From Prevotella sp. (lineage in GTDB: Bacteria; Bacteroidota; Bacteroidia; Bacteroidales; Dysgonomonadaceae), in the NCBI GenBank assembly GCA_031285625.1, contig JAITVV010000086.1:1-38042 (forward strand): a DNA stretch of 38,042 nt. The letters are read 5' to 3'. A model generated the notes under the pieces. It was not told where the DNA came from. It saw nothing but the letters and a program-made list of their open reading frames with translations, and searched no databases. Position numbers and translations under genes: made by a program. Below, piece after piece: positions 10,648-11,298 of this stretch; position 1 is the first letter of the stretch, and every line of letters starts with the position of its first letter.

Positions 10648-11093
10648 AAATTTTTTAGTTTAGTTAAGCACTTTTTGGTCTTGAATGTTATATCTTTTAA
10701 AAAATTCAATGCCTGAAAACATTTCATAAACTACTTTCACAAGCGGTTGAAAAAATAAAAAAGAGAGACAAATATTGAAGACAACAAGCAATAATACTTC
10801 ATCTTTTCTTTCAAGGCATTGAATTCTTAATTTACTGACTATATCTGATTGATAAATCTTGGGGAAACAAGTGTTAAATTGACATAAATCCACACAACAC
10901 TTGCTTTTGTATCTAAAAAAGATTATAATACTACGCATGCGCAGAATTATTGTACACATATATGTGTATGTAATACAGCATCTAATAAATAAGAAAAACT
11001 GATTTATTAGATGAATATTAAAAAATGGTAGTGACTTGTAGTAAGGTGATAAAGAAAAAGGAATTTCCTCTCTTTTGAAAAAATTAATTTTGT

Positions 11094-11234
11094 TTACTCT
11101 CTCTCTCTCTCTCTCTCTCTCTCTCTCTCTCTCTCTCTCTCTCTCTCTAGCAAAATACAGCTAACCTCCAAATTTTCAATAGAAAAAATGAAGTCAATAT
11201 TTGTAATATTAGTAACTTTTGAGAGAAATAACAT
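11094..11234 (-). CDS. Leader ORF containing the (AG)26 tract; 46 aa in the present allele (MLFLSKVTNITNIDFIFSIENLEVSCILL-(ER)8-E), 190 aa ending at 10660 if one AG unit is lost
   Basis: Manual translation from ATG 11234; TAA at 11096-11094 directly after the repeat; the alternative frame is open from the repeat to 10660. Confidence 0.6.
   Translation of the reverse strand: MLFLSKVTNITNIDFIFSIENLEVSCILLERERERERERERERERE
11097..11148. repeat. Perfect (CT)26/(AG)26 dinucleotide microsatellite
   Basis: 52 nt uninterrupted, read directly. Confidence 0.98.
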
Positions 11235-11267
11235 AATCTTGTACCTGTCTTTTTTGTCTTGTCGCTA

Positions 11268-11298
11268 CAAAGATATATGCTTTTTCTAATTTAGCAAA
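11268..11298 (-). promoter_or_regulatory. Bacteroidetes housekeeping promoter (-33 TTTG, -7 TATCTTTG) driving leader + 641-aa gene
   Basis: Minus strand TTTG (11298-11295), 19 nt, TATCTTTG (11275-11268): matches consensus TTTG-N19-21-TAnnTTTG. Confidence 0.75.

Follow-up and report, generated by a model that had tools for sequence, protein, structure and literature searches.

The window, a 38,042-nt stretch of DNA comprising contig JAITVV010000086.1 of Prevotella sp. (assembly GCA_031285625.1), carries on its minus strand an S9-peptidase gene at 11347–13893 (Peptidase_S9, E 1.7e-48), a leader in which a small ORF runs into an AG microsatellite, and a gene for a 641-aa protein. In the direction of transcription, the elements of this locus are as follows.

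11319–11352, minus strand: intrinsic terminator of the upstream S9-peptidase gene (15-pair stem and T-run)
11268–11298, minus strand: Bacteroidota-type promoter (TTTG at 11298–11295, 19-nt spacer, TATCTTTG at 11275–11268)
11149–11234, minus strand: head of the leader ORF (ATG at 11234–11232, followed by 28 codons plus 2 bases before the repeat)
11149–11190, minus strand: nucleotide-conserved motif directly 5′ of the repeat (..TTTTTTCT.CTGAAAATTTGG..GTTAGC..TATTTT..T)
11097–11148, minus strand: (AG)26 microsatellite, read as (Glu-Arg)n (TRF: a perfect (CT)26 on the forward strand)
11084–11096, minus strand: early stops in two of the three frames (TAA at 11096–11094 with 26 units; TAA at 11086–11084 with 27 units)
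10660–11100, minus strand: long frame, a putative "ribosome track," entered with 25 or 28 units (145 sense codons, TAA at 10662–10660)
10699–10828, minus strand: conserved structured leader domain (long-range helix, inner hairpins, and a U-run at 10704–10699)
10645–10670, minus strand: conserved stop-rich junction (CTTAACTAAACTA...) and target ATG at 10647–10645, an invariant block in five related leaders
8722–10647, minus strand: target gene of 641 aa (ORF listing) with a predicted signal peptide
8669–8704, minus strand: terminator 3′ of the 641-aa gene (terminator search)

The terminator at 11319–11352 is the upstream limit of the switched unit. Read on the minus strand, the −33 TTTG and the −7 box with 19 nt between them match the Bacteroides −33/−7 promoter consensus, which includes TAnnTTTG, as given in the available portions of PMC4747536 and PMC12632263; 33 nt separate this promoter from the ATG at 11234. 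In the window allele, the leader ORF encodes 46 aa (11094–11234). The motif directly upstream of the tract closes both other frames (TAG at 11163–11161 and TAG at 11149–11147), and the length of the AG tract sets the frame downstream of it. The stops met in the three frames end 3, 13, and 437 nt after the repeat. With 26 units, the stop follows at once; with 27, it lies four codons further on; with 25 or 28, the long frame is entered. Its TAA precedes the start codon of the 641-aa gene (ATG at 10647) by 12 nt, and the frame is itself closed upstream by the TAG at 11163–11161. A preliminary description of the locus had set out this arrangement, and rereading of the DNA confirmed its account of the promoter, the start codon, the tract with its adjacent TAA, the stop four codons later, the long frame with its end 12 nt short of the target, and the TAG that closes this frame just upstream of the repeat.

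The 641-aa gene has its own terminator at 8704–8669, so that the controlled unit is a single gene. Searches of local copies of Pfam and NCBIfam returned nothing for its product; PF26696 (PTL_trimer) is found in the Atlas clusters closest to it, and we treat this as a lead only. An Rfam search of 10000–12000 with E up to 1 returned nothing near any gathering score, and Pfam gave no match above cut-off for the 46-aa and 99-aa ORFs, only a sub-threshold, low-complexity DUF3915.

The leader of the window locus (~451–457 nt) is unusual in its openness. The long frame contains one stop, where the other two have 9 and 15, and an open run of at least 145 codons arose in none of 2000 shuffles of the leader, for which the mean was 21.9 codons. 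A compact terminator was absent from this leader in our search, the best hairpin having a free energy of −8.0 kcal/mol.

The 4.84-Mb genome contains eight long AG tracts and no other dinucleotide tract of more than 8 units, and a motif of ~40 nt precedes seven of these eight. A pattern consisting of the motif followed by (AG)5 was searched in 41 genomes, namely this one, 24 others of the genus, and 16 from other families of the order. It yielded 77 copies of the motif plus (AG)n in 17 of the 41 genomes, all within the genus (17 of 25, or 16 of the 24 besides this one), and each of the 17 is a different species. None of the 16 genomes from other families had a copy, and a reversed-pattern control gave 0 hits. 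Seven copies lie in this genome, within a range of 7–10 per genome; two of the 77, situated at contig ends of genome G004, were left out of further analysis, leaving 75. This distribution indicates that motif and AG tract form a genus-wide cassette family rather than a chance pairing. The preliminary description had proposed a dedicated leader acting as a gate: the gate reading is supported by what follows, but the leader is no one-off, being one of the 77 copies of this genus-wide cassette.

A downstream ORF is in view in 60 of the 75 copies, and in each of these the first large one shares the strand of the cassette, 112–938 nt further on; where the first ORF of at least 200 aa is far downstream, an unlisted shorter gene may precede it. 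When 20 downstream proteins were compared with Pfam, nine proved SusC-like (CarbopepD_reg_2 plus Plug, with or without the barrel), one was a BspA-type LRR protein, two matched Fib_succ_major (one with Ig_7), one matched TIG, and seven had no match. In the genus search, (AG)n leaders also turned up ahead of other surface genes as well as of paralogues of the 641-aa gene, a recurrence that the preliminary description had anticipated. From these matches, the cassette targets appear to be SusC-like transporters and other secreted or surface proteins.

The cassette head bears the marks of a reading frame. An in-frame ATG precedes the motif by 14–27 codons (commonly 18) in 72 of 75 copies. Across the 13 variable codons that separate the two, the ORF's own frame has a stop in none of the 75 copies, compared with 44 and 37 of 75 for the other frames; with one copy per 80%-identity cluster, the counts are 0, 36, and 32 of 63. 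These counts indicate that the head is translated or selected to stay open. In 68 of 75 copies, stops within the motif close both other frames before the repeat, so that only ribosomes coming from the cassette ATG can enter the tract. Of 71 copies, 27 have an exact −7 box no more than 120 nt upstream of the small-ORF ATG; in the interval from repeat to gene, an exact TAnnTTTG occurs in four of 53 leaders, though those regions are longer, and in the window leader, where a separate promoter between the repeat and 10647 would have spoken against the preliminary description, there is none. The distribution of boxes argues against independent downstream promoters of consensus type; weaker ones may exist.

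The motif itself behaves differently from a coding sequence. In alignments, its variation falls at codon positions 1 and 2, and third positions are fixed (nCT, Gnn, nnT); conserved RNA structure was sought in 67 sequences of the cassette head, with 0 predicted pairs. This codon-position pattern, together with the lack of conserved pairing, points to a nucleic-acid signal, not a conserved peptide. The center of the motif is a near-palindrome, GTTAAC/GTTAGC. Conservation of the motif at the nucleotide level is not accounted for by a frame-gate model.

Several identities were considered for the motif and rejected. In a comparison by eye with consensus sequences, the spacings misfit a sigma-54 promoter, an ECF-type promoter, and the RfaH ops element. 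A −1 frameshift heptamer (A AAT TTG), judged in the same way, would lead into a −1 frame that meets TAG/TAA within three codons. RNA-guided transcription by dCas12f-sigmaE has been described upstream of susCD (PMC13472631); PF07282 gave 0 matches in this 94%-complete genome; as a control, the search gave matches in eight of 14 reference genomes.

Downstream of the repeat, 55 of the 75 leaders could be analyzed, the rest being interrupted by contig ends or runs of N. We assigned leaders to class B if a hairpin with ΔG of −12 kcal/mol or lower was followed by a T-run, and to class A if one frame spanned at least 75% of the leader; eight of the 55 fit neither class. Class B comprises 29 leaders, in which the hairpin (ΔG −12 to −35 kcal/mol), followed by its T-run, lies 13–126 nt after the repeat. 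At least one frame is open as far as the stem in 29 of 29, compared with 14.6 (sd 2.3) when the intervening sequence was shuffled, and none of 1000 shuffles matched the observed number. The stem is never within reach of all three frames at once, and in 21 of the 29 leaders the frame as assembled reaches the terminator. One class B copy, on contig C13 of this genome, precedes a SusC-like gene.

Class A comprises 18 leaders, including that of the window. Their long frames end between 116 nt before and 116 nt past the next ATG, most of them within 45 nt, and some overlap that ATG by 4–20 nt. The long frame contains 0–4 stops, as against 1–15 in the other two, and it is the assembled frame in five of the 18. 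Early stops, within 15 nt of the repeat, occur in 60 of 165 frames, compared with 48.4 (sd 5.0) after shuffling (P 0.011). The predicted ON and OFF states of the assembled alleles are mixed across the family; these calls are provisional, as unit counts of long tracts may err.

In the long frames, it appears to be openness that is maintained, not peptide sequence. Substitutions between related long frames are spread evenly over the three codon positions (for example, 47/46/50, 48/38/41, and 51/52/51), and frames with 62–94% nucleotide identity have peptide identities of 17–38%, in alignments whose many small gaps may be artifacts. The exception is a near-identical pair, L010 and L026, at 94% nucleotide and 63% amino acid identity. 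The preliminary description had named in advance, as a test, that orthologous leaders should keep one post-repeat frame open, with its stop near the next ATG, despite poor conservation of the peptide; the leaders compared here behave in this way. The MKTKL gene family offers an internal comparison, since the structured leader domain of this family also precedes paralogues that lack the cassette. In the 11 of 15 MKTKL leaders with an AG tract 215–424 nt upstream, the best frame contains 0, 0, 1, 0, 2, 0, 0, 0, 3, 0, and 0 stops, compared with 6, 4, 3, and 4 in the four leaders without a tract. Purging of stops is thus apparently confined to leaders where ribosomes can arrive from the cassette.

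An alternative reading of these data is that motif and tract act as DNA or RNA without translation, as a binding site or a special promoter for a trans-acting factor, with tract length tuning transcription through spacing or through an unusual DNA structure of the purine–pyrimidine tract and the open frames being secondary. It draws on the same observations that a frame gate leaves aside: the motif is conserved in its nucleotides, is centered on a near-palindrome, and has no conserved RNA fold. We nevertheless think this unlikely, since it leaves unexplained the conserved in-frame ATG and stop-free head, the single frames purged of stops that are found only behind AG tracts, and the correspondence between frame reach and terminator position. 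Tracts of 52–90 nt are, moreover, too long for a promoter spacer, and RNA-guided recruitment of a sigma factor is improbable in a genome in which no Cas12f/TnpB-type domain was detected.

The small ORF could instead be a real gene, encoding a phase-variable small protein composed of (Glu-Arg)n and a variable tail that acts in trans, with the downstream genes expressed independently. Selection to keep the ORF head open would be expected of such a gene, and in the 21 class B loci whose assembled frame ends in or past the strong terminator, the layout resembles that of an ordinary small gene. We judge this reading very unlikely. From locus to locus the tails are unrelated, and they lack any bias by codon position; the head varies at codon positions 1 and 2 with the third fixed, as under nucleotide-level constraint, and neither ORF of the window has a Pfam match above cut-off. 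The assembled ORF is out of frame in 13 of 18 class A and 8 of 29 class B loci. Independence of the downstream genes also sits poorly with the invariant orientation of the ORFs in view and with the scarcity of promoter boxes downstream of the repeat.

A leader gate of the kind favored here requires that the number of repeat units vary. Over the 75 copies, it ranges from 5 to 46, with a median of 27. The preliminary description had predicted length heterogeneity, and orthologues in genomes G003, G005, and G017 differ in seven of seven sets, by 1–18 units (23/34, 23/33/39, 23/28/41, 31/28/41, 31/32/45, 36/33, and 29/24/36). From these differences between genomes, we infer slippage. Locus L055 carries a runaway (AG)125. 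That the tract is a neutral or selfish microsatellite spread with repeated sequence, without regulatory role and before a gene with its own signals, is highly improbable: AG tracts of at least 14 units do occur in 33 of 301 genomes of the order, and the length reached at L055 would suit such a tract, but the tract keeps a constant position and orientation with respect to surface-protein genes, frames have been cleared of stops, stops in the other frames flank the tract, and the element persists in 17 genomes of as many species.

Contigs of four sequencing runs were compared with the window. One from run X4 (~97–98% identity) spans the tract in 29 letters, compared with 71 in the window; being 42 nt shorter, this allele would, given unchanged flanks, stay in the OFF frame. 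X5, an RNA-library run that has 18 variant letters in common with X4, includes one contig covering leader and coding sequence (10300–11086); transcript start, level, and strand are not readable from contigs. If X5 carries the short allele, OFF is not silent. The lack of cover by X5 contigs at ~11110–11325 is not interpretable, and depth cannot rank expression. The idea that short tracts are always locked ON was refuted by a further copy of the motif in this genome, on contig C47, with (AG)4 and stops right after the tract, and probably also by the X4 allele. At L008, L020, and L052 (9, 5, and 9 units), by contrast, the short tracts are assembled in the long frame.

Candidates for the gate of the window locus were sought in the fold of its leader, which is better than that of 100 of 100 shuffles (z = −4.5). 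A long-range helix pairs 10828–10809 with 10719–10700 around inner hairpins and ends in the U-run at 10704–10699. In the consensus fold of five related leaders, 12 of 46 pairs show compensatory changes; in that of 15 leaders, nine of 27 do. The outer stem is almost invariant and is thus backed by conservation, not covariation. Only the long frame crosses the domain of helix and U-run, and this domain (10828–10699) may be the attenuator of the window locus. The same helix and U-run also occur in paralogues without an AG tract, so that they may not be a terminator and may serve another purpose. The genome encodes Rho (E 4.7e-34); the leader contains 62 C and 55 G, and with no bias of C over G, nothing points to Rho in particular, so that the Rho polarity raised in the preliminary description is one candidate mode of gating among several.

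Taken together, the data favor a leader gate: (AG)26 is probably a slipped-strand switch within a leader ORF that is phase-variable and, through its translation, controls expression of the gene downstream; each of the three rival readings accounts for less of the evidence. Transcription would start at the promoter at 11298–11268, as its match to the consensus suggests, and ribosomes would start at the ATG at 11234, as conservation suggests, and read the head into the repeat. Replication slippage would alter the number of AG units and so pick one of the three downstream frames. Two of these would stop ribosomes within 13 nt, the 26-unit window allele being among them. The third would take them ~435 nt through the leader, across the helix and U-run, to a stop 12 nt before the target ATG. 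Full passage would be needed for expression of the 641-aa gene; it could block the terminator-like structure, keep Rho off the RNA, and/or hand ribosomes to the next start. Translation in Bacteroidota generally starts without a Shine–Dalgarno site. At the 29 sister loci of class B, the gate would be the compact intrinsic terminator. Under this model, the window allele is predicted to be OFF or low, and alleles of 25 or 28 units are predicted to be ON.

A wider proposal, which we advance tentatively and regard as rather doubtful, is that the long frames (130–170 codons) are ribosome tracks leading to a distal attenuator and the next start, with irrelevant encoded content; that the ~85-nt head is a portable cassette read by a trans-acting factor; and that dozens of nutrient-uptake (SusC/D) and surface-protein operons of this insect-gut Bacteroidota genus together constitute one coordinated stochastic switchboard.

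If the gate operates as proposed, expression of SusC-like transporters and other surface proteins would be individually stochastic throughout a genus by means of one compact, transferable cassette, with a bearing on evasion of phage and host and on bet-hedging during the foraging of glycans. In its long form, the leader would be a clear case of a bacterial ORF selected for being translated, not for its product, and for annotation it would be a warning that leaders of this type belong neither with genes nor with untranslated regions. Small as it is, the cassette lends itself to direct tests, and it could be reused as a synthetic stochastic switch.

Parts of this design have counterparts in other systems. 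Outer-membrane protein genes of Helicobacter pylori carry CT repeats in the 5′ coding region and are contingency genes. Like the present loci, they combine a dinucleotide tract and slippage-driven switching of frame with targets in the outer membrane; unlike in those genes, the repeat here lies outside the target coding sequence, and a stop and 12 nt separate the long frame from the 641-aa coding sequence. The pyrBI and trp leaders are translation-coupled attenuators. Rho attenuation at tnaC and speFL, in the available portion of PMC12360218, depends on an upstream ORF. In all four, as proposed here, whether transcription proceeds into the structural gene depends on where the ribosome stands on a leader ORF; there, a metabolite is sensed through pausing or stalling, whereas the present switch would take a heritable frame change as its input.

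Invertible-promoter switches of Bacteroides belong to the same order and likewise impose stochastic ON and OFF states on SusC/SusD-like outer-membrane targets. They operate by site-specific inversion (Tsr0667 or Mpi), in contrast to a microsatellite within a leader ORF. No conserved pair of inverted repeats was found in the sequences common to the 75 copies, and the window locus has only AT-rich, imperfect inverted pairs, such as one of 20 nt at 80% identity, 67 nt apart. Phase variation in Bacteroidales, in the literature that we found, means DNA inversion, and the word "slipped" does not occur in the available portion of a 2025 review (PMC12632263). Literature searches returned no repeat-switched leader ORF in Bacteroidota.

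The closest precedent from these searches is the pil1 leader of Streptococcus gallolyticus, a Gram-positive coccus, for which the principle of a repeat-switched leader is already published (PMC3894217). According to the portion of that report available, out-of-frame changes in the GCAGA repeats of pil1 and pil3 lengthen the leader peptide, and the ribosome then prevents formation of a premature terminator; at pil1, translation into the hairpin leads to high expression, and the target is a surface structure. Common to pil1 and the loci described here are a promoter, a leader ORF, and a simple repeat in units other than multiples of three nucleotides, as well as frames that stop before, within, or past a terminator hairpin, and the 29 class B loci have this same layout, which has been demonstrated by experiment in S. 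gallolyticus. The present family differs from pil1 in belonging to Bacteroidota, in its dinucleotide repeat of 5–46 units, in its mostly SusC-like targets, and in its 77 copies across a genus sharing a conserved head of ~85 nt. The window locus departs further from pil1, having in place of a compact terminator a 145-codon, peptide-indifferent frame that leads to a distal helix, a U-run, and the next start. The principle is known; new are its occurrence in this phylum, the number of loci involved, the dinucleotide as repeat unit, the portable conserved head, the SusC-like targets, and the ribosome-track form.

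A conserved structured RNA domain precedes genes of the MKTKL family, whose members lie behind leaders with or without the AG cassette (an ATG head, a nucleotide-conserved motif and (AG)n within a leader ORF).

Window 10699-10828, minus strand: domain of conserved RNA structure, made up of a AAATTCAATGC...GCATTGAATTT helix, an inner hairpin and a U-run.

Compensatory changes are found in the inner hairpin, which the U-run follows. The domain recurs in the extracted leader loci L008, L020, L046, L084, L087, L090, L094, L099, L104, L106-L108, L110, and L114, and it sits 45-60 nt upstream of the MKTKL-family gene starts irrespective of whether the AG cassette is present. 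A search of Rfam with window positions 10000-12000, at E values up to 1, returned no match to this domain.

The 77 matches to the motif followed by (AG)5, from 17 of 41 genomes, are a lower bound on cassette copies because the search pattern missed locus L081 (G181:C73, same genus), in which the motif reads GGCTGAC instead of GGTTAGC. In the genome that holds the window (G000), tracts lie no more than about 100 nt from the start of contig C55 and from the end of C71, and contig ends lie similarly close to tracts in G004:C5, G004:C19, G012:C37, and G010:C45. AG tracts break short-read assemblies, and copies have therefore probably been under-counted.

G000 also holds loci that lack part of the cassette.

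C96, 15364-15405: (AG)21 tract without the motif.
C47, 5083-5108, and C64, 29412-29437: copies of the motif in which the AG tract is either just (AG)4 or absent.

The C96 locus has the cassette layout minus its conserved head; an ATG lies 83 nt upstream of the tract, and its frame crosses a hairpin and T-run ahead of a SusC-like gene. The copies on C47 and C64 look like decayed or locked cassettes; the genes that follow them encode an 840-aa protein and a SusC-like protein. On C47, the ORF stops directly after the tract; on C64, an in-frame ATG is absent.

Other tracts are very long or compound.

L055 (G003:C1:3020225-3023160, positions 151-492), minus strand: (AG)125, motif core and (AG)33.
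G000 C13, 10483-10562, and loci L004, L009, and L019: AG tract continuing directly into (AC)4-8.

In L055, the 250-nt (AG)125 tract lies immediately 5′ of the motif core and (AG)33 follows it; this locus has no ATG head of the usual kind, and there is a run of N upstream. This double tract looks like the product of runaway expansion or of recombination between AG tracts. The (AC)4-8 stretches place a second slippery tract on the same frame path as the AG tract.

Across the order, 33 of 301 genomes contain AG tracts of at least 14 units.

L073-L078 and L080: AG-tract loci of note in other genera.

The genus-specific motif was absent from the inspected other-genus loci (n = 10). A short frame from an ATG enters the tract in 6 of these 10 (L073-L078), and signal-peptide genes or terminators follow at some other-genus loci. 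The leader layout may extend beyond the genus.
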